Both the position numbers and the translations under genes were made by a program. 32,000 bases of DNA. Origin: Gemmata obscuriglobus. Lineage in GTDB: Bacteria > Planctomycetota > Planctomycetia > Gemmatales > Gemmataceae. Location: contig NZ_CP042911.1 of assembly GCF_008065095.1 (NCBI RefSeq), positions 2,100,001 through 2,132,000 on the forward strand, in the 5' to 3' direction. Below, one piece after another: positions 1 to 32,000 of the stretch. The notes under the pieces were generated by a model, which was given only the letters and a program-made list of their open reading frames with translations, was not told the origin of the DNA and did no database searches. Position 1 is the first letter of the stretch. Each line of letters opens with the position of its first letter.

Positions 1-539
1 TGAAGCGGGGCCGGGCAGACGATCAGGATTTTCCGAGTCCGGTGGCGGATAATGAGTTCGAGCGCCACCATGCCCGCCTCAATGGTCTTGCCGAGGCCCA
101 CGTCGTCGGCCACCAGCAGGTTAACCCGTGGCATCTGGATGGCCCGCACCACCGGGTCGAGTTGGTAGTCCTCGATGTCGATGCCACTACGGAACGGGGC
201 CTGAATCGTGCGCACGTCCGCCGACGAGGAAGCGCCCCAACGGACGGCATCAAGGAAGGCGTCGAGTTGTTCGGGCGGATCGAACCCAGTGGGATCGGGC
301 AGGGCGACCTTCTCGACCACCCTGGCCCCCGGCTCAAGTTCCCAAACGACGTTCAGTTCTTCGCCCAGGCCGTCGTCCTCGACCGACGACAGGGTAACGA
401 GGTGCTGCGGCGAGTCCAACCCGGCGTGCAGTCGTTCGGACGGCAGGGTGCTGGCGGATACGTCCGTGACCATCCAGTTGCGGGACCGGACGCTGACCAT
501 CTGGCCCTGTTCGGGGTGTCGAGAGGTTATGGGCGTCAT
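1..539 (-). CDS. SNF2-family (SF2) helicase, N-terminal part; the gene runs off the left edge
   Basis: My own minus-strand translation; the frame is absent from the ORF track because it has no stop inside the window. It reads MTPITSRHPEQGQMVSVRSRNWMVTDV...QAPFRSGIDIEDYQLDPVVRAIQMPRVNLLVADDVGLGKTIEAGMVALELIIRHRTRKILIVCPAPL. 'LLVADDVGLGKT' is the SNF2 motif I context. The ATG at 539-537 is preceded by GGAAGG, and there is an in-frame stop upstream at 698-696. Confidence 0.85.
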   Translation of the reverse strand, partial: MTPITSRHPEQGQMVSVRSRNWMVTDVSASTLPSERLHAGLDSPQHLVTLSSVEDDGLGEELNVVWELEPGARVVEKVALPDPTGFDPPEQLDAFLDAVRWGASSSADVRTIQAPFRSGIDIEDYQLDPVVRAIQMPRVNLLVADDVGLGKTIEAGMVALELIIRHRTRKILIVCPAPL

Positions 540-640
540 CTCGGTCGTGCCTTCCGGTTCGGCGAAAGCGCCGGACTCCGCCGTGATCGGGCCGTTCCCC
601 GCAGCAATCTTTAAAGTGCTGTTCGTGAAGCCCAAGTATC

Positions 641-883
641 CTACGGTGACGAGGGACGCCTCGCCACCGGGAAAGTCGCCCTGTTGCGTCTGTCCTCACG
701 GCTGAAGTACGCCCGCATCCCCTCGATCTGCCCCGGAGCGAACAGCGCCCGCCGCTTGAACACCACGCCCGGCCCCGGCAAGTACCCCGAATCGACGGCG
801 TACCGCAACCGCCACACGGCCACCCCCAGCACCTCCGCCGCCCCTGCATATGTGTAGCACTCCCATTTGTTAACATTCGTCAT
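641..883 (-). CDS. Small helix-turn-helix DNA-binding protein (MerR/excisionase-like)
   Basis: 80-aa ORF. 'YTYAGAAEVLGVAVWRLRYAVDSGYLPGPGVVFKRRALFAPGQIEGMRAYF' has the HTH-plus-wing layout of excisionase/MerR-type binders. It lies directly upstream of the SNF2 gene on the same strand, and an AT-rich divergent promoter region follows at 884-940. Confidence 0.55.
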   Translation of the reverse strand: MTNVNKWECYTYAGAAEVLGVAVWRLRYAVDSGYLPGPGVVFKRRALFAPGQIEGMRAYFSREDRRNRATFPVARRPSSP

Positions 884-940: not shown

Positions 941-1303
941 ATGAACTGGTCAGATCATTTCCGTGAGTTGAAGCGTCAGCAGCCCCCCGCCGCCGCACCG
1001 AGGTCGGGGCCGACAAGTGTGCAGTCACTCAGCGACATCCCGCCCGAGGCCACGCCGTTGCAGGTGTTCCGCCTGCCCGTCGAAGTCCTCCGGGTGGACG
1101 AGCGAGTAACGAGGACCGGCGACCCGTGCTACTTCCTGCACGTCCGAGACGCCGACGGACAGAGATTCCCGATTGTCTGCTGGGACTGGCAATGGGCCAA
1201 ACTGAGCGGCAGAATCACGGTTGGTCGAGAAGTGACGCTGGACGTGAAAGTGCCGACAGGCGACTACTTGTCGTTTACGCTGGCCGGAACAGGCGCTTGC
1301 TGA
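941..1303 (+). CDS. Hypothetical protein, possible OB-fold
   Basis: The ATG is preceded by AAAGGAG. The C-terminal half (VFRLPVEVLRVDERVTRTGDPCYFLHVRDADGQRFPIVCWDWQWAKLSGRITVGREVTLDVKV) has a beta-strand periodicity typical of OB folds. The fold call is inference only. Confidence 0.6.
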   Translation: MNWSDHFRELKRQQPPAAAPRSGPTSVQSLSDIPPEATPLQVFRLPVEVLRVDERVTRTGDPCYFLHVRDADGQRFPIVCWDWQWAKLSGRITVGREVTLDVKVPTGDYLSFTLAGTGAC

Positions 1304-1594
1304 AAGTCATGCTGCCGAATTTCCGAAAACCGGAATTTGGCGAACGGGCACTCGATGGGAGCGGCGGGGTCGAAGAGGTGTGCAGAGGTGCGCAGCCCGC
1401 AGAATTAGACTGAAGCGTCCGAAGATCGGCGTCGTTGCGTACCGAACGGTAGAGCAGAGTCGGGCGAAGCAGGTGGCCTGGCAAAACATTAACGTCAATC
1501 AAATTCATTTGTCGATTATGCCCAAGCGATAAATTATTATATCGCCTACACAATTGACTGAGCATTGAGAAGGGATTCAGTAAATAAGATTCTC

Positions 1595-1626
1595 TTGAAA
1601 GATGAGTGATGAATATATAATATAAT
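1595..1626 (+). promoter_or_regulatory. AT-rich sigma70-like promoter candidate pointing into the ORF-free region
   Basis: TTGAAA at 1595-1600 is followed by overlapping TATAAT hexamers at 1616-1621 and 1621-1626. The spacers are 15 and 20 nt, so neither is the ideal 17. It sits in the most AT-rich island (about 1490-1650) of an otherwise GC-rich module. Confidence 0.3.
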
Positions 1627-1649
1627 CTAATTAAATAGCCCCTGAATGG

Positions 1650-2280
1650 CAAGCGAGTCGTGTGCTGTGTGCGACGTTAGCGGCTCTTGCGGGAGAAGCA
1701 AAACACGGTGAAGCCTACTACTGAAGGGCGTGCGAAATGGCTCAGTGCGGATACCGTGTGAACGTGCGACGAACAGACACGGGTTAAAGAATATGGCGAA
1801 CTGCCAAAGGTAAGCTCACTTGCGTGGAACTCAATAGCAAGGACGCCCCTATCCGCCGTGTTGTCGGGGTGAGACGCTACGAACACGTAAATCAACCAGT
1901 GGCGAACAATACGCTCCCGTGCTTCGGCACGGGGTCAATACGCCTTCACTCTGGACAGTTCGAGACGAGCGCAACAAGAGTTACCGGCACCTGCGGTGAA
2001 TCAATGCGGGCGTCCGCCAAAGCCCGGACACCCGCACCGATTGTCTGGTTCAGGTCGGGTTCGCTGGTGAATGTGACATGGTTAATGTTGAGTGTTCCAC
2101 CAGCACAACCCGAACGCAGCGCCGCTCGTGGCAGGCGTCCGGGCTTTGGCGGACGCCTGCCGTTGCTCTCGCCGGAGGCGAGCAAGTCACCCGGGTGACG
2201 CCCACTGACCGGCGCACACCCAGCACACCCAAGCTGAAACGCTGGCGGTGCAATGACCCGATGCGCAGTGCGGGTCACAA
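1650..2280 (+). ncRNA. Candidate large structured non-coding RNA, or an array of regulatory hairpins; family not recognised
   Basis: No protein-like ORF on either strand; the track ORFs here are Arg/Pro/Gly-rich junk. Hairpins: 1916-1933 (7 bp closed by a cUUCGg tetraloop, which is strand-specific for +), 2006-2035 (11 bp, one mismatch), 2130-2161 (12 bp perfect), 2168-2182 (6 bp), 2186-2199 (perfect 14-nt palindrome GTCACCCGGGTGAC) and 2254-2277 (7 bp). Confidence 0.3.
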
Positions 2281-2409
2281 GAGCGGGCTTCCTGCAAGAT
2301 GCACCCGGTACCGCCCGGTTAACAAGTCGGCCGGGGTGCGAACCGGCGCAACTCGACCCGACCGCTTGCTGTTACCGACCAGCGCACACCACCTTCCGAC
2401 CGGCGCACA
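2206..2409 (+). repeat. Three direct copies of CGACC(G/A)GCGCACA
   Basis: tGACCGGCGCACAcc at 2206-2220, CCGACCAGCGCACAcc at 2375-2390 and CCGACCGGCGCACA at 2396-2409. The last two start 21 nt apart, about two helical turns. Confidence 0.6.
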
Positions 2410-2472
2410 TTTTCTCCGTCCGTGACCGAGCCGGGCGGTATGGGCGGCGGTGGTGGGCGGCCGATCAGCAGA

Positions 2473-2682
2473 CTACCGGGGGAGGATGGCGTGAAGCCCC
2501 AGGCCGACCACGAACAGTGTGTAGGCGGCGTGGAACAACTGCTGATCCAGCCCGTCATCCCCGTCCCGCCGAGCCGCACGAGCGTCTGCCTCGATTAGCT
2601 CGGACAACAGGTGAAGGACAGACCCGACTGAGTAGGCCGCAAGCACCTCCCGCAGACGCTCTTTCGCTTCGTCGTCGGACAT
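2473..2682 (-). CDS. Hypothetical small protein (69 aa from the internal ATG)
   Basis: MSDDEAKERLREVLAAYSVGSVLHLLSELIEADARAARRDGDDGLDQQLFHAAYTLFVVGLGLHAILPR. The ATG is at 2682-2680. A GTGACCATAC motif copy lies 58 nt upstream. Confidence 0.45.
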   Translation of the reverse strand: MSDDEAKERLREVLAAYSVGSVLHLLSELIEADARAARRDGDDGLDQQLFHAAYTLFVVGLGLHAILPR

Positions 2683-2740
2683 TGGCGTGAACACCCATCT
2701 TGAGGGGCGTGCCCGAATGTGGGCCGCCACACCAACCGGG

Positions 2741-2834: not shown

Positions 2835-3689
2835 TTAAGAGTTAACCGGCACTTGCGTTTCGTCCTTCGCCGCTCCCGCTGCGGCGATCTCCTCCGCCGT
2901 ATCGAGGATCAGCCGCACCGCTTCGCACACCCGCTCCAGCACGGCGCAACACGCCGACACCACGTCCAACCGCTCCGAGAGTGCGTACCCGGCGATGTAC
3001 CGCCACGAGCCGCCCAAATCAGCATCTTCTTCGCTTCCGAGCAGCCGCAACAGAACGGCCGCACCCAACTGCGCCACGGTTTCCGAGCGCCAGTGTTGGC
3101 CCTTTTCCTTCAGGTTTCCGGCCCTGTCGTCGGCGGCATGGACGAGTTCGTGCGCCCACGTCGAGAGGTTCTTGACGCCCAGGCCGATGAGTTGCTTCCG
3201 GCGGTAGAAGCCGTGTCGCCCGCTCCCCTCGCCCTCGAAGACTTCGACCCGCAGCCCCCACTTTCGAGCGACTTCCACCAGCGGGAGCGACTCGACCCAG
3301 CGCTCCGCTTCCGGGTCGGCCGGGGGGAGCGGTGCGCCGTCGGTCTGCCCGATTCCGAACACCGGAATTCCACGAAAGCCGATCAGGATTTCTTTGTCTT
3401 GGCCCGTCTCCTCGTCCTTCACGTTTTTGATGATCGGTGCCAGGATCGTGAGCGATTTTTCGCCCTTCTTCACGAACCGCCCGACGCCCTGCCACTGTCG
3501 GAAGCCCCGTGCGTCGGTGTGCCCGGCCAGCGCCACGAGCAGTTGGTTGCGCCACGACCACTTGCGGCACGGGATGTCGTCGCCCGTCCTGACGAACAGT
3601 GTGGCGAGCGGAGCGGGTAACGCCGTCGGGTTCTCAAACGCCTTCACGATGCCCGCCGCCGCCTCTTCCGCACTGCCGAAGTACTTCAT
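2835..3689 (-). CDS. ardC: ArdC-like antirestriction protein (N-terminal ssDNA-binding ArdC-N domain plus C-terminal HExxH metalloprotease-like domain)
   Basis: 'ALAGHTDARGFRQWQGVGRFVKKGEKSLTILAPI' matches the ArdC-N/DUF1738 pattern. 'WAHELVHAADD' is the HExxH motif. I place the start at the ATG at 3689-3687 (MKYFGSAEEAAAGIV), preceded by GAGGGA; the longer track ORF (to 3932) has a non-protein-like N-terminus. Confidence 0.85.
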   Translation of the reverse strand: MKYFGSAEEAAAGIVKAFENPTALPAPLATLFVRTGDDIPCRKWSWRNQLLVALAGHTDARGFRQWQGVGRFVKKGEKSLTILAPIIKNVKDEETGQDKEILIGFRGIPVFGIGQTDGAPLPPADPEAERWVESLPLVEVARKWGLRVEVFEGEGSGRHGFYRRKQLIGLGVKNLSTWAHELVHAADDRAGNLKEKGQHWRSETVAQLGAAVLLRLLGSEEDADLGGSWRYIAGYALSERLDVVSACCAVLERVCEAVRLILDTAEEIAAAGAAKDETQVPVNS

Positions 3690-3755
3690 GGCCCGTCCCT
3701 CGTGGTCACGCCGCACACCGAACCGCCGGGTGCGAACTGCCTTCGAGGGATGGGG

Positions 3756-3768
3756 GTGTATGGTCACC
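3756..3768 (-). promoter_or_regulatory. Conserved upstream motif GGTGACCATACAC, copy 2
   Basis: The plus strand reads gtgtatggtcacc, 66 nt upstream of the ardC-like ATG at 3689. Confidence 0.6.
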
Positions 3769-3812: not shown

Positions 3813-3825
3813 GCGTATGGTCACG
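3813..3825 (-). promoter_or_regulatory. Conserved upstream motif CGTGACCATACGC, copy 3 (variant)
   Basis: The plus strand reads gcgtatggtcacg, 123 nt upstream of the ardC-like ATG. It is a second tandem copy in the same orientation. Confidence 0.5.
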
Positions 3826-4141
3826 GCGCAAGGAAGAGGTCGAGCGTGCGGAGAACCACGAGGAAGACACGAGGCCATTGTCGCTTGAAGGGCCGGGATC
3901 AGGTTCCGTTCGGTGGAAACGGCTGTGGGCACCCGTCAGGCGCTCGACCGCAAAGTTCATTTGCTGACGAGACGGTTGGGCCGAGTCTGCTTCTCTCACG
4001 ACTTGAATCCGCTCCACTGAGATGGCTTAATGCAGACCGGATCGGAGGAGAGGCAGGCCGTTCGGAGCCAACCGACTCCGCCATCCCATGAGCGCCGGCT
4101 GTGATCCGGCGTCGGATCAAACACTTAACTTGGAGACGACG

Positions 4142-4480
4142 ATGACGAAGCATGAGATTCTAGCCCTGCTTCAGCAGAGCGCCGTGAGTCGGCTGGAGAT
4201 TTCTTACGATAGTTCGGACGATGAGGGCATGATCGACTCGGTGACTTGCTTCGGCCCGGATGGGGCACAGGTTAAACCCACACCCGAAATCAATTCCTTA
4301 GTCGAGGAATTGGTGTGTGAAATGCTCGATGAACAGCAGGGCGGTTGGGAACTGGACGACGGATCGTTCGGCGAGGTCGAGATTGATGTCGAAACAGGAT
4401 TAGCCAGTTTTTCGCACACGGTAAGGGTGATTGATTACTCGGACGAAGACTTTGTGGTGTCGATTCTGGAGGGCAACTAA
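4142..4480 (+). CDS. Hypothetical acidic protein
   Basis: MTKHEILALLQQSAVSRLEISYDSSDDEGMIDSV...; GGAGA lies upstream of the ATG at 4142. Its stop overlaps the next start (TAATG at 4478-4482). Confidence 0.6.
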   Translation: MTKHEILALLQQSAVSRLEISYDSSDDEGMIDSVTCFGPDGAQVKPTPEINSLVEELVCEMLDEQQGGWELDDGSFGEVEIDVETGLASFSHTVRVIDYSDEDFVVSILEGN

Positions 4481-6274: not shown

Positions 6275-6287
6275 GGTGACCATACAG
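6275..6287 (+). promoter_or_regulatory. Conserved upstream motif GGTGACCATACAG, copy 4
   Basis: 58 nt upstream of the ATG at 6346, and followed by the hairpin CACGGG-aggtg-CCCGTG. Confidence 0.6.
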
Positions 6288-6813: not shown

Positions 6814-6826
6814 AGTGACCATACGC
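6814..6826 (+). promoter_or_regulatory. Conserved upstream motif AGTGACCATACGC, copy 5
   Basis: 52 nt upstream of the ATG at 6879. Confidence 0.55.
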
Positions 6827-7753: not shown

Positions 7754-7766
7754 GGTGACCATACAC
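7754..7766 (+). promoter_or_regulatory. Conserved upstream motif GGTGACCATACAC, copy 6
   Basis: 58 nt upstream of the ATG at 7825. Confidence 0.6.
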
Positions 7767-9698: not shown

Positions 9699-10610
9699 GT
9701 GAAGAATTCGGCGAATAAGGTTTTCGGCACCACTCAGGTCGGAGAGGGAGAGGCAGCGCTCTTCACCACCTTCCTCGACGCCCACGACTTCGCTTCGGGA
9801 ACCCGGAAAGCGTTCACCCTCGACATCAAGAAGTTCGCCGTATGGTTCGCTGAAGTGAACCGGGAACCGTTCCGGGTCGGTCGGGTGACCATGAGGGACG
9901 TGACCGACTTCCGGGAGCACCTCCGCCGGGAAAAGGGTCAGGCCGTTTCCACCGTCAACCGGGCACTCGTGGCCGTACGGCGGTACTTCGGGTGGCTCGC
10001 CGAGCAGGGGCACGTTGCCTCGAACCCGGCGGTGGGCGTGAAGGAACTCCGGCGGGTGCAACTTGCGCCGAAGGGACTCCAACGGGATCAGGTGCGAAAA
10101 CTGTTGCGGGAGGTCGAGCTTCGCCAGGACGTGCGGGCCTCGGCGGTCTTTCACCTGCTTCTGTACACCGGCTGTCGGATCGGCGATCTCGTGAATCTTA
10201 AACTTCAAGACCTTATGCTGACCGAGCGGTCGGGAACAGTGGTATTCCGGCTCGGCAAGGGAGGGAAGCAACGGTCGGTTCCCCTCCCGCTGCCCGCCCG
10301 CAAGTCCATCCAGGCTTACCTCGACACCCGACCGCCGGTGAAGGAGCAGATTGTTTTCATCGGGGAACGTGGGCCGCTGACGGACCGGGGCGTCCGGGCG
10401 ATGTGCGACAAGTACAGCGCCTTGATCGGCGTGAAGCTGCACCCACACCTGTTTCGGCACACGATGGCGCACCAGTTCCTTGCGGACAACGAGAACGACC
10501 TCGTCGCCCTGGCCCAACTGCTCGGGCACGAGAACCTGAACACCACGGCCCGGTACGCCCGCCGGAGCCACGACCAACTGGCCGATGCCGCCGACAAGCT
10601 GACGTATTGA
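9699..10610 (+). CDS. Tyrosine recombinase / phage-type integrase (XerC/D-like)
   Basis: GTG start. It has an N-terminal SAM-like domain and the catalytic residues in '[11 protein letters not shown]', '[12 protein letters not shown]' and '[13 protein letters not shown]' (R..HxxR..H..Y). Confidence 0.92.
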
Positions 10611-24249: not shown

Positions 24250-24606
24250 TTAGGCCACGCCACGGCCATGAATGCTGTGGTAGCCGATACTTGCCAAGGC
24301 TTCGACGCCTTTAACGAGGTTGCCAAGGTCTTCGGCGGTGATCCAGTTCTTTTCGTTCAGGTGGAGCAACCAGTCGCCCAGTTTGGCGGTGCTGTCGATT
24401 CGGGTAAGGACAATCTCGTACTGTTGTGGCTTGTAGTCGATGGAGGGCGGTTCAGCGGGATTGTAGACCCAGTTTCCCCAGTGTTGTGTACCGGAGTCAA
24501 CCAGCGTCTTCAGCTTGGCGTCCTCCAGTTCGCCCAATTCGATTAGCTCCTCGGCGGTGAATGACGTTTGGGCCTGGAGCTTGTTCAGGCGGGTGTCATC
24601 GCTCAT
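24250..24606 (-). CDS. Hypothetical protein (118 aa)
   Basis: The sequence is protein-like: MSDDTRLNKLQAQTSFTAEELIELGELEDAKLKTLVDSGTQHWGNWVYNP... Confidence 0.6.
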   Translation of the reverse strand: MSDDTRLNKLQAQTSFTAEELIELGELEDAKLKTLVDSGTQHWGNWVYNPAEPPSIDYKPQQYEIVLTRIDSTAKLGDWLLHLNEKNWITAEDLGNLVKGVEALASIGYHSIHGRGVA

Positions 24607-24616
24607 TGAACACTCC

Positions 24617-25084
24617 TTAGTTTCGGGGTGAAGATGCCGTCACCGGATCGGACGGGCTGACGGCGTTGCCGGCGAGTATCCAGAGTCGCCTGTGGTCCGG
24701 CACCCAGAAATCAACGCTGTCTTCACCACCACCGGCACCGTGGGCCATTTCCCAGTACGTCACGTCGGTGTTGATGCCGAAGGCCGCACCCGCATCGGCC
24801 GGGATGGTGTCTTCGGAATCATCTCGGCCATAGGGGTAATCCAGGCACGGGTGCCCTTTGAAGTCGCCGAGCGAAAAAGTCGGCAGGACGGTGACCAGCA
24901 GCGAGTGGTTGCCGTTGCACTCGGAATGTCCGCACGACCACGACACCAGGAAGTCCGGCGACCACCCGACGAGTTCGAGCGGCTGGTACGCCCACTTCCA
25001 GTTCGCCAGGTCGAAGAACGCTGCCCACCGTGCGTGGAGGCGTGATTTGAACGTCACCCCGGCGTACTGTGCTTCAACGAACAT
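24617..25084 (-). CDS. Phage nuclease-like protein (TnsA/PD-(D/E)xK-type N-terminal motif)
   Basis: The ATG at 25084 is preceded by AAGGAAG. 'FKSRLHARWAAFFDLANWKWAYQPLELVGWSPDFLV' matches a recurrent phage pattern (S.LE.RWA.FFD..g..W.YEP....y.PDF). The downstream E-x-K is not obvious, so activity is uncertain. Confidence 0.65.
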   Translation of the reverse strand: MFVEAQYAGVTFKSRLHARWAAFFDLANWKWAYQPLELVGWSPDFLVSWSCGHSECNGNHSLLVTVLPTFSLGDFKGHPCLDYPYGRDDSEDTIPADAGAAFGINTDVTYWEMAHGAGGGEDSVDFWVPDHRRLWILAGNAVSPSDPVTASSPRN

Positions 25085-25139
25085 GATCTTCCTTTCGTGT
25101 GGTTCGACCCGCCGCATTTTCATTACCAACGGGTAGATA

Positions 25140-25384
25140 GTTCTGGACCCGACCGCAATACCGCTTGGTCGGGTGGATCATCATTTTGGACCGTGACGAC
25201 GGTGATGATGATCGGGTCGGGTTGTTGCTTTTTCAAAACCGGGTACAGGGTTGGGGGCCATCTGTCATCATCATCACACCCGACTGTAAGGAGGGATGAT
25301 GATGATGATGATGACCACAATCACCCCTAGACATGATGATTCCTATTATCCTTGCCAACCCGATAATCGTTCTTATCGGCCCGA
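25140..25384. repeat. Repeat-dense intergenic region ((GAT)6 tract, GTCATCATCATCA/TGATGATGATGAC hairpin, four ACCCGAC/GTCGGGT heptamers)
   Basis: ACCCGACC at 25147-25154 pairs with GGTCGGGT at 25167-25174. GTCGGGT lies at 25216-25222 and ACCCGAC at 25278-25284. The (GAT)6 tract is at 25295-25312, and the 13-bp stem pairs 25264-25276 with 25303-25315. A small hairpin CGATAA-tcgttc-TTATCG lies at 25361-25378. Confidence 0.85.
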
Positions 25385-27058
25385 TCACGCTTCCTTGCCG
25401 GGGGTCCAATTTGTGGCCTTTAACCCGAGCTTCGCCTTAAACGGCCCCCACAGATCGGCGTAGCCGGTGACCAACCCGTACTTTTTCTTCTTAGCGTCGT
25501 TCTCGACGATCTTCTCGGCCTCCAGTGCCCGGAGAGCATCGTACAGCTTGGCCGAGGACAGGTTCAGCTTGTCGGCTTTGAAACTCCGAAGCATGGCGGC
25601 ACCCGACTCCGGCCCTGACGATTCGAGGTGTCGGACGACGTGGGCCATTGCGTTCGCTAGGTTCTCTTCGCTGAGTGCGGCAGCGGCATCCTCACCCGCT
25701 CCGAGGTACCGGTACACACCGTCGTCGAATTCGAGCGTGTGCGGCGGGGTGTGGTCGATACGGCCACCGATTTTGACACGTCGCTGGGTGGTATCCTGAC
25801 CGGTTCCAGGGGCCTTGACAACTTCAAAATCGATCAGAACGTCCGGGACCGCCAGGATGTCGGTGCTACCGCTGGCCCGTCCTTCGTGATTCGCATGGTG
25901 AATGAACCCGACGGTATGACCGGTTTTGTGGGACCACTCGGAAAAGGGGTCCAAAAGTCCGCTGATACAGTTTGCGTCCCATTCCCAGTTTGACTTCAAG
26001 CCGGGCTTTCGCCCGAAAGAACGGCGAAGCGAATCGATCAGGAAAAAGCCGGGCTGGGTCATCCGCTTGGCGATTTGGTCCAGGAAGTCGGTGGTGACGT
26101 GGGGCGGGAGTTTGTACGCCTTGTTGTCCACCTGGCGGTTGCTGACCCTAAACCACTTTTTTAGGTCGGTCCAGTCCCGGCCTTCCATGACCGGGTTCAG
26201 AATGCAGTGCTTCAGGTACGCCGTATCGTTTTCGTAGTCCACGTAATAAAAGGGGAACGGGTCGGCGGCTTCTCCCCAGAACGACCCGGTGTACACGAGG
26301 TCGATAAACGACTGGATGATACACGTCGTTTTCCCCTTTTTGGCGGGGCCGGGAATGACCATCAGCTTCCCTTGCGGGATACGCCGGGGGACGAGGTACT
26401 TGTACTCGGAGGACGTTTCGGCGAAGAAGGTGTCCAGGTCGCACAGGTCGGCGTCTTCGGAACCGGCCAGGTTACGCTCCCGGTTCTCGATCATCGTCTT
26501 GAGGAACTGGGTTTGCTCCTCGTAACTGACCTTTTTGTTGTTGCGGGCGTCCATAAACCGCAACAGGTCCACTTTGCTCTGCTGCTCGAAAACGAAGTGT
26601 CGAAGGTGGTCGTCGATTTGTTCGGGGACGGGGTGGTCGGTGTGATACTCCAGGAGTGTATTTAGCTCGCCGAGGTGCCACAGCTTTACGGCCTCGTCCT
26701 TGCCGTCAAGCTCTTGAGTCAGGACGTTTTCGAGGTACGCTTTGGTCGGGAGCTTTTTGTACTTCTCGACGTGACGGGCCAGGGTCTTAAAAATCAGTTT
26801 ATGGTGCTCGGCCACCCAGTGCTCGGTGGTCAGCTTGTCGTGATATTTGACAGCCAGGTCGGTCTCGGTCAGCAGCGTGCCGAGAATCTCCCGCAGGAAG
26901 CTCTCGGTACCGGTGATGGTGATGTCGAGCGGCTGGCGGTCGGGGTCTTGCTTCGCCAGTTCTTCGATCAGCTTCCGCTTCTCTTCTTCCGTCCTTTTCT
27001 TAATTTCCGCTTGTGCTGTTTGGTCCATTGAACGATATATTCCATAAGACGGTTCCAT
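25385..27058 (-). CDS. Replicative helicase-like ATPase (DnaB-N-like helical N-terminus plus RecA-fold AAA_25/RepA-type core)
   Basis: Walker A is 'VIPGPAKKGKTT' and Walker B-like is 'GFFLIDSLRRSFG', followed by 'VGFIHHANHEGRASGSTD'. The N-terminus 'FLREILGTLLTETDLAVKYHDKLTTEHWVAEHHKLIFKTLARHV' resembles DnaB N-domains. I place the start at the ATG at 27058 (or 27028), because the track start at 27118 would put a 15-bp terminator hairpin inside the ORF. Confidence 0.85.
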   Translation of the reverse strand: MEPSYGIYRSMDQTAQAEIKKRTEEEKRKLIEELAKQDPDRQPLDITITGTESFLREILGTLLTETDLAVKYHDKLTTEHWVAEHHKLIFKTLARHVEKYKKLPTKAYLENVLTQELDGKDEAVKLWHLGELNTLLEYHTDHPVPEQIDDHLRHFVFEQQSKVDLLRFMDARNNKKVSYEEQTQFLKTMIENRERNLAGSEDADLCDLDTFFAETSSEYKYLVPRRIPQGKLMVIPGPAKKGKTTCIIQSFIDLVYTGSFWGEAADPFPFYYVDYENDTAYLKHCILNPVMEGRDWTDLKKWFRVSNRQVDNKAYKLPPHVTTDFLDQIAKRMTQPGFFLIDSLRRSFGRKPGLKSNWEWDANCISGLLDPFSEWSHKTGHTVGFIHHANHEGRASGSTDILAVPDVLIDFEVVKAPGTGQDTTQRRVKIGGRIDHTPPHTLEFDDGVYRYLGAGEDAAAALSEENLANAMAHVVRHLESSGPESGAAMLRSFKADKLNLSSAKLYDALRALEAEKIVENDAKKKKYGLVTGYADLWGPFKAKLGLKATNWTPGKEA

Positions 27059-27065
27059 TGAATTT

Positions 27066-27105
27066 GACCACGGGCCGGTTCGTAACCGGCCCGTGGTCTT
27101 TTTTT
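27066..27105 (+). terminator. Canonical intrinsic terminator in plus orientation (15-bp stem plus T7)
   Basis: GACCACGGGCCGGTT-cgt-AACCGGCCCGTGGTC followed by TTTTTTT. Confidence 0.75.
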
Positions 27106-27139
27106 GTACCAGCAACAAGCCGGTACAAGCTATTGGTGG

Positions 27140-27373
27140 TTAGGCCACCGGTTGCTCGGCCTTTTGCCGAAGGTAACGTTTGACCCCCGACTGTTTCAGC
27201 CAATAGGCACGCACAAAATCGATTTGTGTGGCCGAATAAAACGGCCACCCGCCGTAGGTCTGATCGGGCTGCGGCATCCGGGCCTTGTGGTAGTGCCAGG
27301 TGCCATCTGGAATACCGAACTGCTCGCAGAGTAGCTGGCGGACATGATCGACGGTGAAGGCTTCTCTGTCCAT
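27140..27373 (-). CDS. Small DNA-binding-like protein (77 aa)
   Basis: AAAGGA lies before the ATG at 27373. The peptide is MDREAFTVDHVRQLLCEQFGIPDGTWHYHKARMPQPDQTYGGWPFYSATQIDFVRAYWLKQSG. The longer track ORF (to 27820) is antisense to the HNH gene and is junk. Confidence 0.6.
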   Translation of the reverse strand: MDREAFTVDHVRQLLCEQFGIPDGTWHYHKARMPQPDQTYGGWPFYSATQIDFVRAYWLKQSGVKRYLRQKAEQPVA

Positions 27374-27466
27374 TTTTTTGGTTCCTTTCGATTGAGGCGA
27401 CAGACTAGTAGAGTGCGGCTGCCGAATTTCAATCTCAATTTTGAAATTACCTCCATATCTAGGAGG

Positions 27467-27769
27467 ATGACACCAAAACAAAAAAGGCACCAGGAGCACC
27501 TTCGCAGCCCGTACTGGGCCACGGTCCGCCGTGCCGTCGAAGAGCGGGATCACGGCCGTTGCATCCAATGTGGTGCAACGGCCGTTGACGGCCCTCTTCA
27601 TGTTCACCACCTGAGCTACAATTTTTGGCTCCGTGAACTGGACGGCCTGCACACGGTGATTCTGCTGTGTGAGTGCTGTCACGCTATACGGCACGGGAAA
27701 ATACCGACCCAGCGAGTACTGAGTGATTACGATTTGCTGATGCACGTTGAGATTTTTTTGAAGGACTAA
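27467..27769 (+). CDS. HNH endonuclease
   Basis: 'ERDHGRCIQCGATAVDGPLHVHHLSY...LLCECCHAIRHG' is the phage HNH zinc-finger/His-Me layout. The ATG at 27467 lies directly after AGGAGG. Confidence 0.85.
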   Translation: MTPKQKRHQEHLRSPYWATVRRAVEERDHGRCIQCGATAVDGPLHVHHLSYNFWLRELDGLHTVILLCECCHAIRHGKIPTQRVLSDYDLLMHVEIFLKD

Positions 27770-27866
27770 CACTCTGATAGGCGAAGCACGCCAGCGGTGT
27801 AGGCTTGCCGTCCGTTTCAATAGGAGACCCGGGAGTCGCCCGCTGCGGCCTCGGACTTTCTTAATT

Positions 27867-28268
27867 ATGGGGCCGACACCAGAGACTGAACCCGCCGCTG
27901 TCCGCCGAGCTGTACTCGATTCGCTCGAAATCGGTACGATTTCCGAAAAATTGGTTCTTTTAGTACACCAAATTGCACGTCGCAGGTGCTGTCCCGGTAT
28001 GGCCGAAGATATTGCCCAGACCGTACTTTGCAGCCTTGTCCGAAATCTTCAGAAACTCGACCCGGACAAGGACTTGTATGCTTATATTTGCAGCGGCGTG
28101 GTCAATACTTGGCGGCGAATTATGCGGGGGCGTCGAGCCGAGCGTAAATACCTTTTGGCTCAGGTGGAAGTGATCTTGGCCGGCTTGCCTCCGGCGTATC
28201 GAAGTACTGCTAGGGGGCAAGCGATTGCGTCATGGGAGCAGGTGTCGGGGTTAAAGTACTATGCTTAA
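27867..28268 (+). CDS. ECF-type sigma-70-like protein (region 2 clear, region 4 short or incomplete)
   Basis: 'AEDIAQTVLCSLVRNLQKLDPDKDLYAYICSGVVNTWRRIMRGRRAERK' fits sigma region 2.1-2.4 ('AEDl.Q..fl.l......f.......WL..i..N...d..R'). 'ILAGLPPAYRS' resembles the start of region 4, but the ORF ends about 25 aa later. Confidence 0.55.
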   Translation: MGPTPETEPAAVRRAVLDSLEIGTISEKLVLLVHQIARRRCCPGMAEDIAQTVLCSLVRNLQKLDPDKDLYAYICSGVVNTWRRIMRGRRAERKYLLAQVEVILAGLPPAYRSTARGQAIASWEQVSGLKYYA

Positions 28269-28330
28269 TGCGATCTCCCAGCACCTCCACTATGACAAGG
28301 CTACGTCATGCGGAGGGCTGCAATAAATTC

Positions 28331-28966
28331 CTAGTTAATCGCTAGGATCACGTAGTCTGCTGTAGGATTGCTTTGCACCTGTGGCTGCGGTGTAGAGCAA
28401 GGCGTTGGCATTGGTGGCCGGTCGCCCCTGGCGAGAATATAAGCCACAAAATTCATCAAGATTGCGAGACTGTAATGAATCAGAACGACGGTTCCGTGTC
28501 CGCAGCGACCGCCACCACCGAACGGCTGTAATATCACCGGCTGAAGAATATCCATGACCATTCGGGTGGATACACCGACAAATCCAGCCCAAAGCACTAG
28601 GCCGGGTGCGAAAGCGGCAAGGAGTTTCGTGGAATTGAGCGTTTTGAACGGCCCTGGATCATCTCCCCAGTTCTTCCGAACATGGCAGTAGGCGAGTTCA
28701 CAGAACAAGGCGGACCACATCAAAAACAGCAGCGGTTGGTAGAGGAAGCGGTGGAACGGCGTGTCTGGCCCCTCGCCCGGCCCTCCATTGTTGAGGATCA
28801 GTGTCGTGGCCACTGCCAGAAGCAGGATGGTGATCGAGCCACGGCGGGCCACTTTTTTCCGAACAGGGCGAATCTGTTCAACCTTGCGTGTCAGTGCGGC
28901 ATCGAAACGGGAAATGAGACCGGAGAGCATGGGAGATCGCCTCCTGGGGACAGAGGTGGGCGACAA
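28331..28966 (-). CDS. Polytopic membrane protein (about 5 TM segments), unknown function
   Basis: Hydrophobic segments include ITILLLAVATTLIL, LLFLMWSALFCELAY, LLAAFAPGLVLWAGFVGV and VVLIHYSLAILMNFVAYIL. An alternative start lies at 28930. Confidence 0.6.
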   Translation of the reverse strand: MSPTSVPRRRSPMLSGLISRFDAALTRKVEQIRPVRKKVARRGSITILLLAVATTLILNNGGPGEGPDTPFHRFLYQPLLFLMWSALFCELAYCHVRKNWGDDPGPFKTLNSTKLLAAFAPGLVLWAGFVGVSTRMVMDILQPVILQPFGGGGRCGHGTVVLIHYSLAILMNFVAYILARGDRPPMPTPCSTPQPQVQSNPTADYVILAIN

Positions 28967-29005
28967 ATCCAGTAAACTCGATCAACCTTCGCTTGGTCAA
29001 GAAGA

Positions 29006-29025
29006 AATTAGTGAGGAATTAGTGA
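29006..29025 (+). repeat. Tandem AATTAGTGA 9-mers spaced 11 nt
   Basis: gaAATTAGTGAggAATTAGTGAag. The copies lie at 29006-29014 and 29017-29025, in the ORF-poor region upstream of the terminase gene. Confidence 0.8.
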
Positions 29026-29204
29026 AGATTCAGTCTCCAAAATCTCTCCTTGAAATCCGAAAGAGAAAACCCAGCAACGCAGGCGGAGTTTCGCAAATTT
29101 GTCTAAAAATCGCAGATGCCCCAACCTCGTCGAAGAGTACGCTTGCCACCCATCTGCCATTTCAGCTTTTCTTCGGGTGGCTCTCCCACCTGTTTGCCCG
29201 CTAA

Positions 29205-29453
29205 TTATTCCGTCGGCTCGACTATCTCTGCTTCACGAGGTGTTGAGTGCAGTGGCCTGGTGGCCCTTTGAGTAGAGCCGCACCTCTTGCAAATTTCAAT
29301 AGTGATGCAAACCGACTCTCGATGGCGATCTTTTCCTGCCCGTGTCTCCTTGACCTCCCATTTGTGGTAGCAGCGGTGGCTGTAGCGAGCGAATACGTAC
29401 ATGTAAAAACCTCGGCGATGGTACGGGTTGATACGTTTAATATACGACCCCAT
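29205..29453 (-). CDS. Possible small zinc-ribbon protein (82 aa)
   Basis: 'HRCYHKWEV...VCITIEICKRCGS' offers a C/H..C..C arrangement. It looks more protein-like than the overlapping plus-strand ORFs. Confidence 0.4.
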   Translation of the reverse strand: MGSYIKRINPYHRRGFYMYVFARYSHRCYHKWEVKETRAGKDRHRESVCITIEICKRCGSTQRATRPLHSTPREAEIVEPTE

Positions 29454-29501
29454 CAGATGGGGTCATTATGTGATTTATGATTTTGTGGCCTAGATACGGC
29501 C

Positions 29502-31040
29502 GTGAAATCCGCTCCAACACTCGTCGAGATCGACCGCCTTTTGGCCGCAAACCGGTTCCGCCACTTCTGCGAACTCGTTTGGCCTGCCGTCCGCCCAGAA
29601 CCATTTGTCGGCGGATACTTCGTAGACGCCTTATGCGAGCACCTGGAAGCCGTCCACAAAGGTCAGATCAAGCGGCTAGCTCTCGTTTGCCCCGTCCGGC
29701 ACGGCAAAAGCGTATTCACCTCCGTACTGTGGCCCGCTTGGTGCTGGATCACCGACCCGTCGATACGGTTCCTTTCGGCATCCGCCACACAAGACCTTGT
29801 TCTTCGTGACAGCGACAAGACCCGGGACATCATCAGCCACACGGTCTTTCAAAAGCACTTCGCCGGTCTCTTCAATCTCTCCGAAAAGCAAGACTCGAAG
29901 GGGTGGTACAAGAACGATCGGGGCGGCGAACGAAAGGCCGTCGGTGCCGGCACCCGATCCACAGGTCTCGATGCCGAATATCTGATCGTCGACGACCTTC
30001 TGGACTACGACAAGGCCCGACACGAAGGCGAGCGAAAAGCCGTTCTGGACTTCTACGCCAACACGTTGACCAACCGGTTGGTGTACGCTGCGAACAAGGA
30101 CCGTATCGTCCTATGCGGGCACCGGGTTCACGAAGACGACGTATTCAACCACGTCTGGACCACGTTCGGCAACGACGGCAGTTGGACGTATTTGTACCTC
30201 CCGGCAGAAGCGAATCCGGACCTGAGTAACAGCTACCACAACGCTCTCGGTTGGAAGGACACCCGGAAGGTCGGCCAGTTGCTCCACCCCGGCGTTGTGC
30301 CGCTGGCAAAGATCAATGAGGCGAAGAAGGGAGGGAAGCACAAGTACCACTGTCTTTACAACCAGGATGTTACTCCGGCGGACGGTGACATCTTCTCCGC
30401 TTCGATGTTCCGGTACTTCACGGCGGCAGACGGCTTTTACAATCTGGCCGGGAAGCAGGTTGATGCGAAAGCGGCTTGGCGGTTCGTGGCGGTTGATACT
30501 GCCGTCAGCACCGAGAGCACTGCCGACTATTCAGTGATTCAGGTCTGGGACTGCATCGGTGGTCACCTCGTCCTAGTCCATCAGATACGAAAACGACTCG
30601 ACGGCACGAAACTGGTGCCGGCCATCGCCAGCGTCCACCGAACCTACAACCCTCAGTTCGTGTGCGTGGAGGAGCAGTTCGTCGGGCGGTTCGTCATCGA
30701 TCAGTTGCGGGCCGAGAGTGTACCGGTCAAGCGGTTCAACGCAAAAGGTCACGGTGACAAAGAGACGAGGGCGGTAGCGGCACAGATCAGAATGGAAGCC
30801 GGGAGTGTGTGGTTCCCGGCAGATCAGGACTGGGTGTCGGACCTTCAAAAAGAACTCCTAGCGTTCCCGGCGAGCACCCACGACGACCAAGTGGATGCGT
30901 TGTCGATGGCGTGCATTTTGGCGGACAAGTACACCGGGAAGATCGAGATCGAACTGACCCCGGAGGAAGCCGAAGCAAAAGCAAAAAAGGACGCTGAGGG
31001 GCGTTTCCAAAAGATGCTTTGGCAGGGTGCTCCGTTCTGA
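29502..31040 (+). CDS. terL: Phage terminase large subunit
   Basis: GTG start. Walker A is 'LVCPVRHGKSVF' and Walker B 'YLIVDDLLDYD'. The nuclease domain shows 'FVAVDTAVSTESTADYSVIQVW' and 'HDDQVDALSMA'. Confidence 0.92.
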   Translation: MKSAPTLVEIDRLLAANRFRHFCELVWPAVRPEPFVGGYFVDALCEHLEAVHKGQIKRLALVCPVRHGKSVFTSVLWPAWCWITDPSIRFLSASATQDLVLRDSDKTRDIISHTVFQKHFAGLFNLSEKQDSKGWYKNDRGGERKAVGAGTRSTGLDAEYLIVDDLLDYDKARHEGERKAVLDFYANTLTNRLVYAANKDRIVLCGHRVHEDDVFNHVWTTFGNDGSWTYLYLPAEANPDLSNSYHNALGWKDTRKVGQLLHPGVVPLAKINEAKKGGKHKYHCLYNQDVTPADGDIFSASMFRYFTAADGFYNLAGKQVDAKAAWRFVAVDTAVSTESTADYSVIQVWDCIGGHLVLVHQIRKRLDGTKLVPAIASVHRTYNPQFVCVEEQFVGRFVIDQLRAESVPVKRFNAKGHGDKETRAVAAQIRMEAGSVWFPADQDWVSDLQKELLAFPASTHDDQVDALSMACILADKYTGKIEIELTPEEAEAKAKKDAEGRFQKMLWQGAPF

Positions 31041-31063
31041 TGGGCAGGCCACTAGATATCTGC

Positions 31064-32000
31064 ATGCCGAAAAACGAGGGTCAGAAGTCGAAGAAAAAGG
31101 CGGTCACCAAGAAGAAGACCGCTCCGAAGAAGCCGACCACCAAAAAGCGGGTGGCAAAGAAAGGGTACGCCGGGTCCGGGAACATCTGGACCCCGATCAG
31201 CGGGGGCACGTTCGGCGGTGGGTTCGATCCCACGCAGCAAGAGGTTCCCACGCCGGTCGACCTTCTGTGTGCCTACGAAGACGTGGTTTTTGCTTGCACA
31301 AACCGCATCGCACAGGGCGTTGCTGAGGCCGCCACGTCGTTCAAGCTCGTCGTTGCCACCGGCCACGCCGACTCCCGGCCGAACTCCACCACGAAAGCAC
31401 TTCGCACCACTGACCGGAAGTGGATCGAGAAGAACCATAAGAATCGGGTGCGGAAGGCCGTGAGTGTTGAGGAAGTGGTGGACCACCCGGCCCTCGATCT
31501 TCTTGACACGCCGAACCCGCTGTATTCCTGGTCGAAGCTCGTCGAGCTGACGACCGAGTATATGTGCTTGGTCGGGTCTGCCTTCATCTTCAAGGGCCGA
31601 AACGATCTCGGCCAGGTTCGGGAACTGTGGGTTCTTCCGAGTCACTTGGTACAGATCGAGCCGGATGAGAAGACCGGGGCCATTGCGGGGTACAAGTTCA
31701 AGTCCGGCACTACCGAAGAACTGCACAAGCCGTCCGACGTAATCCACATCCGGTACACGGCCGACCCGCTGGACCCACACACCTCGTTTGGCATCTCGCC
31801 ACTTCGCTCCATCTGGCAGCGGTTCAGCTTACTCCGGCAGGAACAAGGAAGCTGGCTGTCGGTGCTTAGAAACATGGCGTTTCCGAGTCTTTTGGCGTCA
31901 CCGCCGGACAACGAGACATGGACCCCGCAACAGGCCGAGAGGATCGAAAAGCAACTGAACGAGCGGTTTCGATGGGGCAACCAGGGCGGCGTTTGGGCGG
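31064..32000 (+). CDS. Phage portal protein (HK97-type), partial; it runs off the right edge
   Basis: My own translation from the ATG at 31064 gives a Lys-rich N-terminus and then 'VVDHPALDLLDTPNPLYSWSKLVELTTEYMCLVGSAFIFKGRNDLGQVRELWVLPSHLVQIEPDEKTGAIAGYKF...IHIRY', the Phage_portal pattern ('HP...LL..PNP...........l.G.a.......g....L..l.p..v'). There is no stop before position 32000. Confidence 0.9.
   Translation, partial: MPKNEGQKSKKKAVTKKKTAPKKPTTKKRVAKKGYAGSGNIWTPISGGTFGGGFDPTQQEVPTPVDLLCAYEDVVFACTNRIAQGVAEAATSFKLVVATGHADSRPNSTTKALRTTDRKWIEKNHKNRVRKAVSVEEVVDHPALDLLDTPNPLYSWSKLVELTTEYMCLVGSAFIFKGRNDLGQVRELWVLPSHLVQIEPDEKTGAIAGYKFKSGTTEELHKPSDVIHIRYTADPLDPHTSFGISPLRSIWQRFSLLRQEQGSWLSVLRNMAFPSLLASPPDNETWTPQQAERIEKQLNERFRWGNQGGVWA

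Follow-up and report, generated by a model that had tools for sequence, protein, structure and literature searches.

A 32,000-nucleotide (nt) stretch of the Gemmata obscuriglobus genome (contig NZ_CP042911.1, positions 2,100,001 to 2,132,000; here called the window, with positions counted from its first letter) appears to contain the establishment module of an integrative element. Between two of its genes, p120 (120 amino acids) on the left and p85 (85 amino acids) on the right, the latter followed by an ArdC-like antirestriction gene on the same strand, lies a long noncoding stretch, most of which is a segment found in this lineage only. We tentatively read this segment as an accessory, lineage-specific noncoding transcription unit, which ends at a large palindrome and sits in a hypervariable slot of the establishment module, a reading that is plausible and still short of probable.

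As proposed, a sigma-70-type promoter would start a plus-strand noncoding transcript near 1630, and the transcript would run for about 0.4-0.57 kb into a GC-rich palindrome cluster at 2005-2199. The cluster, predicted to fold equally on either strand, would serve as a stop without a U-tract and as a 3' stabiliser of the RNA, and would insulate it against the converging transcription of p85 and ArdC. The product would be an RNA of small to medium size, regulatory or anti-defence in function, which would form local hairpins (a cUUCGg stem among them) and not the global fold of a large RNA. We infer the transcription, the ends and the function of this RNA from the following features.

1304-2472: noncoding stretch between p120 and p85.
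About 1435-2373: lineage-specific segment, an insertion or deletion relative to the related locus L048.
1480-1640: AT-rich island (GC 0.34-0.44).
1595-1623, plus strand: sigma-70-like promoter, TTGAAA-17-TAATAT, called by a scanner, with a predicted start near 1630.
1916-1933, plus strand: hairpin with a 7-base-pair (bp) stem and a cUUCGg tetraloop.
2005-2161: compound palindrome of about 155 nt, consisting of outer arms and an inner stem (about 2054-2068 with 2098-2113), each outer arm being itself a hairpin.
2130-2141 with 2150-2161: 12-bp perfect stem.
2168-2182: 6-bp stem, CTCGCC-GGA-GGCGAG.
2186-2199: 14-nt perfect palindrome, GTCACCCGGGTGAC.

The region carries no coding signal. In a GC-frame plot, codon periodicity is lacking from about 1350 to 2475 (spread below 0.2, against 0.3-0.5 in the surrounding genes), and this aperiodic stretch of 1125 bp is the longest in the window, the next longest being 510 bp. 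No match to Pfam was obtained for the 10 stop-to-stop open reading frame (ORF) pieces of the region, a concatenated six-frame query found nothing at E<=0.01 among 5.8 billion (5.8e9) proteins, and tblastx against the related loci described below was equally empty. With neither periodicity nor any Pfam, protein or tblastx match, the region is truly noncoding and holds no recognisable decayed gene. An earlier note, made from the sequence of the window, had described about 1 kb without a protein-like ORF, which these searches bear out, and the six-frame query, standing in for a BLASTX check, does not indicate decay. Three small ORFs behind the promoter (21, 16 and 6 amino acids) were considered and found unconvincing; they are not kept in the type B cassette of relatives described below. 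The missing coding signal and the missing protein relatives are both counted in favour of a noncoding transcription unit.

The promoter-like site is the second element of the argument. In a window of about 65% GC, the AT-rich island faces into the region and carries two overlapping TATAAT hexamers (1616-1621 and 1621-1626), as the earlier note had seen, and the ideal 17-bp spacing of the promoter called inside this island speaks for the proposed unit. The scan gave 5 promoter-like sites in 3.4 kb, compared with 0.5 in shuffles; the remaining sites fall in the AT-poorer intergenic region between p120 and the divergent 80-amino-acid gene p80. A palindrome, GCGATA-AATTATTA-TATCGC, at 1526-1545, lies 50-70 bp upstream of the -35 hexamer and is a possible operator. 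Downstream, the plus strand is purine-rich at 1600-1900. The cUUCGg hairpin, previously reported and here confirmed with its 7-bp stem, is present in the plus sense only, which is counted for a plus-strand RNA, and its UUCG loop is unique among the 8 perfect tetraloop hairpins (stem of at least 6 bp) found per strand in the 32 kb.

A uniquely stable block follows 375-570 nt downstream of the promoter and is also counted for the transcription unit. The three back-to-back hairpins reported there earlier (2130-2199) are all present, and the first of them, 2130-2161, has an inverted twin at 2006-2035 (11 bp with one mismatch) that had been overlooked. The arms 2006-2040 and 2126-2160 are 86% complementary, so that twin and hairpin form the outer parts of the compound palindrome. 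The 32-nt pattern of the hairpin unit, GGCGTCCG-N8-CGGACRCC, occurs 4 times against 0.2 expected. Folded as single-stranded DNA (ssDNA), 1990-2210 gives a z-score of -5.58, and the minimum free energy (MFE) of the whole 841-nt region gives -4.9 on the plus and -4.2 on the minus strand. Local folding was assessed in 150-nt windows against dinucleotide shuffles, and only 2026-2250 stands out, on both strands (z -2.3 to -3.8, with -2.5 to -3.8 for the palindrome); across 1576-2025 and 2176-2475 the values run from -1.5 to +1.0, similar to those of the flanking genes. The whole-region values are thus due to the strand-symmetric palindrome, and the folding signal is that of a DNA palindrome and not of an extended RNA fold. 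The region had been called hairpin-dense, which holds for 2005-2250 and fails for the rest of 1576-2475; the comparison with shuffles likewise came out in favour of the palindrome block and not of the sequence directly behind the promoter (1628-2004, z +0.69). Within the region, two contigs assembled from short reads of the same strain come to an end, L138 at 1697 and L003 at 2011, the latter position being the start of the palindrome, in keeping with the idea that assemblies break at palindromes.

The surroundings of the segment were compared with 44 genome loci and 80 metagenome loci encoding relatives of ArdC (124 in total), as well as about 15 loci of the p120 family, making some 140 related loci. 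The ArdC-like protein has relatives across many phyla. On the contigs that encode p120-family members, the convergent arrangement of p120 and ArdC is conserved, and the gap between the two varies. The gap measures only 4 bp in L133, L134 and one JGI contig, and about 400 bp in L048; in L054-L056 it holds genes for an XRE-type regulator and a zinc-ribbon membrane protein, in L142 the gene for an 86-amino-acid protein, and in L052, L049 and L050 about 850 bp of different noncoding DNA. In the window, it is about 1.5 kb long and consists of the noncoding segment and p85. Judging from these contigs, the p120-ArdC gap is a cargo hotspot, the content of which differs in nearly every relative. The closest relative, L048, with genes of about 79% nucleotide identity, keeps window positions 1280-1434 and 2374-2455 and has about 22-49 bp in place of 1435-2373. 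These features of the slot were identified:

2374-2455: conserved noncoding block at the right border of the slot, 83-92% identical to L048 1237-1314 and 68% to L052 1377-1453.
2204-2220, 2374-2390 and 2395-2411, plus strand: three direct repeats, ACYGACCRGCGCACA.
L052 692-1377, L049 1300-1709 (to the contig end) and the same in L050: type B noncoding cassette, immediately downstream of the p120 stop, with the same orientation.

The direct repeats, 15-17 nt long and dispersed, share the core CCRGCGCACA, which has 3 occurrences against 0.33 expected, and two of the three lie in the border block. The block may be a protein-binding or recombination site; RNAalifold of its three sequences yields a weak, uninformative structure.

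The type B cassette, placed like the segment in this gap, has a promoter of its own (TTGAAA/CTGAAA-17-TATTAT). Its transcribed part is 93-98% identical between L052 and L049, compared with 70-87% for the adjacent genes and about 65-70% for the promoter spacer. All seven variable predicted pairs stay paired, two through double changes and five through wobble-compatible ones, and the latter pair in the plus sense only. The cassette has two cUUCGg-type loops, no match in Rfam and an MFE z-score of +0.25. Type B is therewith a reasonable candidate for a new conserved structured RNA, and one that appears better supported than the segment of the window. Its z-score shows that a normal value does not exclude an RNA, since type B probably is one. 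That the gap behaves as a cargo site, and that type B occupies the same place in the same orientation, are both counted for the reading of the segment as a transcription unit. A diverged homology of the two was considered and rejected: covariance models R1 and R2, built for two type B domains, gave only chance matches in the window (best E 0.5-0.9), the local alignment score lies within the shuffled range, the global z is 1.4, and motif similarities noticed by eye did not hold.

Several results weigh against a transcription unit in the segment. Type B, being unrelated to it by sequence and by covariance model, offers an analogy and not a homology. Shuffled sequence folds as well as the 377 nt behind the promoter, and AT-rich DNA easily matches a promoter consensus. 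An intrinsic terminator would combine a GC-rich stem with a U-tract; the stems are present and the U-tract is absent. No T-run follows the stems of the palindrome cluster on either strand, and the scanner calls no plus-strand terminator at the palindrome and reports none at all in 2005-2200. An insulator is not obviously needed, because p120 and ArdC have hairpins of their own. The segment is dispensable, given that L048 does without it. Finally, the data searched contain no homologue, which leaves neither conservation nor covariation to argue from.

This last point rests on a broad set of searches. Rfam 15, with GOLLD, ROOL, HEARO, OLE, RNase P, tmRNA, riboswitches and the group II intron among its families, gave 0 matches at the gathering threshold over the whole window, and at E<10 produced artefacts only, such as the plant miRNA model MIR918, whose alignment to the palindrome scored 34 of 268 bits. 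ARAGORN found no tRNA or tmRNA. The earlier note had been unable to match the region to any RNA family whose consensus it knew, and both thresholds of the Rfam scan agree with this. Homologous intergenic regions, which the same note had hoped to find by BLASTN, were not recovered from plasmids, phages or related loci: blastn (word size 11) of 1400-2470 against 72,556 plasmids (PLSDB) and against phages gave no match, and none of the 124 ArdC-relative loci has DNA similar to the region. Using nhmmer, blastn and tblastx, the related loci returned only copies from the same strain and the conserved flanks in L048 and L052. The sole other copies of the segment are on contigs of the same strain with 100% identity; among these, the contig of the near-identical protein P0001 is identical over 1697 bp and, for that reason, adds no micro-variation. 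Exact-pattern scans of the segment in IMG/VR gave zero matches or chance matches with unrelated flanks. Possible trans-antisense targets, searched for with blastn-short, showed only chance-level complementarity of 13-14 nt to the rest of the window.

Among known systems, the segment resembles the accessory noncoding RNA cargo genes of integrative and conjugative elements and prophages in being a promoter-equipped, ORF-free unit between conserved module genes, in its presence or absence among close relatives, and in sharing its slot with a second, unrelated noncoding cassette. It differs from them in having no family or homologues in the data searched, and it is known here from its sequence. 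The palindrome recalls the bidirectional, U-tract-less 'I-shaped' terminators of GC-rich bacteria, with GC-rich perfect stems between convergent units that are stable on both strands; unlike these, it is much larger, compound, and 270 nt from the nearest stop codon, and the flanking genes have their own hairpins. A wider proposal, which we regard as speculative and on balance unlikely, is that the slot is a hotspot at which promoter-equipped noncoding-RNA cassettes are swapped in Planctomycete-type integrative elements. The segment and type B would be two examples, the RNAs would act in establishment or anti-defence (e.g., as decoys or as antisense regulators of the converging ArdC operon), and the segment would be a new RNA gene of a single lineage.

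The strongest competitor to a noncoding transcription unit is an inert relic, that is, a spacer left behind or cargo that has decayed, in a slot prone to recombination, with an island and a palindrome that have no present function. This is a serious possibility, if somewhat improbable. The segment is absent from L048 and from all other relatives and known otherwise only as identical copies in the same strain, its folding is ordinary outside the palindrome, and the cargo of the slot turns over quickly, all as would be expected of a relic. However, no frame retains codon periodicity or protein similarity, which speaks against a recent pseudogene; a 155-nt compound palindrome with 86% complementary arms (z -5.6) is not likely to have been kept by chance; and the stretch is by far the longest noncoding one of the window.

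An origin of transfer (oriT) is a further, rather unlikely explanation. The segment would contain an ssDNA-processing site for a relaxase acting in trans, which would bind the hairpin 2006-2035 and nick the plus strand after ATTGTCT, between 2046 and 2047, so that p85 and ArdC would enter the recipient first and be oriented for transcription from the transferred strand. The candidate site is the following (a slash marks the nick):

2040-2047, plus strand: nic-like ATTGTCT/G, 4 nt (ACCG) after the hairpin 2006-2035.

The ATTGTCT at 2040 is identical to the 7 nt before the nic site of R388, an identity that is a lead only. The R388 nic oligonucleotide is GCGCACCGAAAGGTGCGTATTGTCT/ATAG, and its nic region reads GCGCACCGAAAGGTGCGT-ATTGTCT/A, with positions 17-18 (GT) near-invariant (PMC4176350). 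An inverted repeat, a short spacer and ATTGTCT followed by a purine copy the arrangement of R388, an IncW plasmid of the MOBF class with its oriT beside an ArdC-encoding leading region. As there, ArdC and an ssDNA-binding protein are adjacent: both neighbours are of the ssDNA-binding, leading-region type (OB fold and ArdC), and both flanking genes are directed at the site, the orientation that genes transcribed from the entering strand should have. The AT-rich island and the direct repeats are nearby. Against the MOBF core GTATTGTCT/R, the window reads CGATTGTCT/G, with 7 of 9 positions matching plus the purine, and an inverted repeat immediately 5' of nic, a feature of MOBF oriTs, is provided by the hairpin 2006-2035. 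The resemblance has limits, however, and was recognised only in hindsight. The spacer has 4 nt in place of 2, R388 positions 17-18 read CG here, the proximal arm differs, and the ATTGTCT 7-mer occurs in the window at chance frequency. A Pfam scan of proteins found no relaxase or type IV secretion system (T4SS) gene in the 32 kb of the window or within 10 kb upstream of it; a 923-amino-acid superfamily 1 (SF1) helicase has no Pfam relaxase match, and no HUH-type motif was seen on reading its N-terminus. Matches of the 18-mer in IMG/VR have unrelated flanks, relatives do not conserve the site, which is missing altogether where the gap is 4 bp, and the element here is, unlike R388, of Planctomycete type (Gemmataceae-like). 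The only other case of a hairpin with ATTGTCT among the loci, hairpin+ATTGTCTGGTT in L011, lies inside a 436-amino-acid ORF and is put down to chance.

The earlier note's own leading idea was a large structured RNA, here taken as a new RNA that would span 1630 to about 2470 (about 0.75-0.85 kb) and adopt one overall fold. Parts of that idea stand, namely the noncoding span, a promoter facing in and one strongly structured block, and the plus-sense UUCG tetraloop, the whole-region z of -4.9, the purine-rich plus strand at 1600-1900 and the near-zero z-score of type B can be cited for it. What does not stand is the global fold: the z-score is due to a palindrome that scores -4.2 on the other strand as well, local windows elsewhere are ordinary, including the 377 nt behind the promoter, and neither an Rfam family nor a homologue was found. 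We therefore consider such an RNA distinctly improbable.

The palindrome could also be a mobile doublet, REPIN or MITE-like, of two inverted REP-type hairpins that landed in the spacer, which is very unlikely. The geometry is that of a REPIN, with an imperfect palindrome of 30-32 nt present in two inverted copies, which are separated by 93 nt and form one long hairpin of about 155 nt; the spacer in the palindrome is longer than that of a typical REPIN. No further copy exists in 42 kb of the same genome (the window and 10 kb upstream), so that it is known here as a single copy. The 43 pattern matches in IMG/VR are about what chance gives for 16 specified bases, by our own estimate, and none has matching flanks; nhmmer found no extended similarity, and no RAYT-like gene was seen.

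An ssi- or Frpo-like element, a single-strand promoter or priming site and the alternative offered by the earlier note, has very little probability left. Single-strand promoters of this type, in the leading regions of plasmids, were reportedly described by Masai and Arai in 1997. They carry -35 and -10 hexamers inside a long imperfect ssDNA hairpin and precede a leading-region ORF of the same orientation by 50-350 bp (PMC11541004). The segment shares with them an anti-restriction neighbourhood of leading-region type (ArdC and an OB-fold protein) and a long hairpin that forms in ssDNA. However, its hexamers lie outside that hairpin, in an AT-rich island that does not fold: as ssDNA, 1440-1700 gives z +1.29, with the -35 and -10 hexamers unpaired in the centroid structure and the palindrome 1526-1545 as the sole pairing kept. 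The hairpin 2005-2161 in turn has no -35/-10 pair. Because p120 and p85/ArdC all end facing the region, no sense ORF lies downstream of the island or the palindrome on either strand, and no sequence similarity to the 72,556 plasmids was found. A Frpo-type ssDNA promoter is thus disfavoured. The AT-rich island, the repeats and a gene-like length could suggest a decayed protein gene or a replication origin (oriV), and both are highly improbable, as there is no periodicity and no Pfam, protein or tblastx match, DnaA-box-like sites number 37 against 44 expected, and neither an iteron array nor tandem repeats are present.

Returning to the noncoding transcription unit, its neighbours belong to the module in which it would act. 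The genes and signals around the segment are these:

3-539, minus strand: N-terminus of an SNF2 helicase.
641-883, minus strand: 80-amino-acid gene, p80.
941-1303, plus strand: p120, the left flank, with codon periodicity and a predicted OB fold (SSB/RPA-like).
1314-1341, plus strand: hairpin after the p120 stop, 10 bp including 2 G-U pairs, with loop CGAAAACC, read from the sequence.
2473-2730, minus strand: p85, the right flank, with codon periodicity and a probable start at ATG 2682.
2743-2752, 3758-3767 and 3815-3824 (plus strand); 6276-6285, 6815-6824 and 7755-7764 (minus strand): copies of the 10-mer GTATGGTCAC.
2810-2784, minus strand: ArdC terminator, a classical hairpin and T-run directly after the stop, from a terminator scan.
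2835-3692, minus strand: ArdC-like antirestriction gene (Pfam ArdcN, 4.6e-05).
4088-4480, plus strand: DUF6878 gene.
9699-10610: tyrosine integrase.

The p120 protein has no Pfam match. Its AlphaFold2 (AF2) model, with a predicted local distance difference test score (pLDDT) of 81.6, is an OB fold, and the top Foldseek matches of the model are the ssDNA-binding OB domains of Teb1 (OB-A), RPA, SSB and PriB, as well as the plasmid protein PrgE. By this model, p120 is confidently predicted to be an OB-fold protein resembling ssDNA-binding domains; its family is small, with 13 clusters. The hairpin at 1314-1341 is likely a p120 terminator without a U-tract, and this flank is kept in L048, where window positions 1315-1335 are 90% identical. 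Other members of the module are DUF6915, an AcrVA2-like gene and a RuvB-like ATPase, and together with p120, ArdC, DUF6878 and the integrase they suggest the establishment part of an integrative element.

On the right flank, p85 has a homologue in L055/L056 that is 68% identical. It probably has a promoter of its own, as a hairpin and T-run terminator directly follows the ArdC stop. The 10-mer GTATGGTCAC (GTGACCATAC in gene sense) was observed in 6 exact copies, each immediately upstream of an ArdC-module gene, and the GTGACCATAC motif at 2743-2752 would belong to the likely p85 promoter. With at most one mismatch, the 10-mer has 7 matches against 1.3 expected, and it is also found beside ArdC in L004, L048, L051-L056, L060 and L133. 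From this distribution, GTATGGTCAC/GTGACCATAC is probably a promoter or operator of the element family.

Two further parts of the window were noted. A second variable slot, carrying defence systems, lies left of the 80-amino-acid gene (window 1-883; L001 1-9560; L051 378-3987). Here it holds the SNF2 helicase, a 1503-amino-acid MmeI-like methyltransferase and a 671-amino-acid protein (DISARM- or BREX-like); in L051 it holds an OLD-family ATPase and UvrD (Gabija-like). The far end of the window, 24600-32000, looks phage-like, with a DnaB-like/AAA_25 helicase at 25385-27118 on the minus strand and a large terminase at 29502-31040 on the plus strand; this part is located past the tyrosine integrase and does not belong to the ArdC module.

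To our knowledge, establishment and anti-defence modules have so far been described almost wholly as proteins (ArdC, SSB, anti-CRISPRs), and the biology of mobile elements in Planctomycetes has barely been studied. As a relic, the segment would be an ordinary finding. If it is transcribed and functional, an RNA component would be added to establishment and anti-defence modules, in Planctomycetes. The slot and its type B cassette are more promising than the segment of the window itself, and the slot gives a defined place to look for accessory functions, the type B RNA included.

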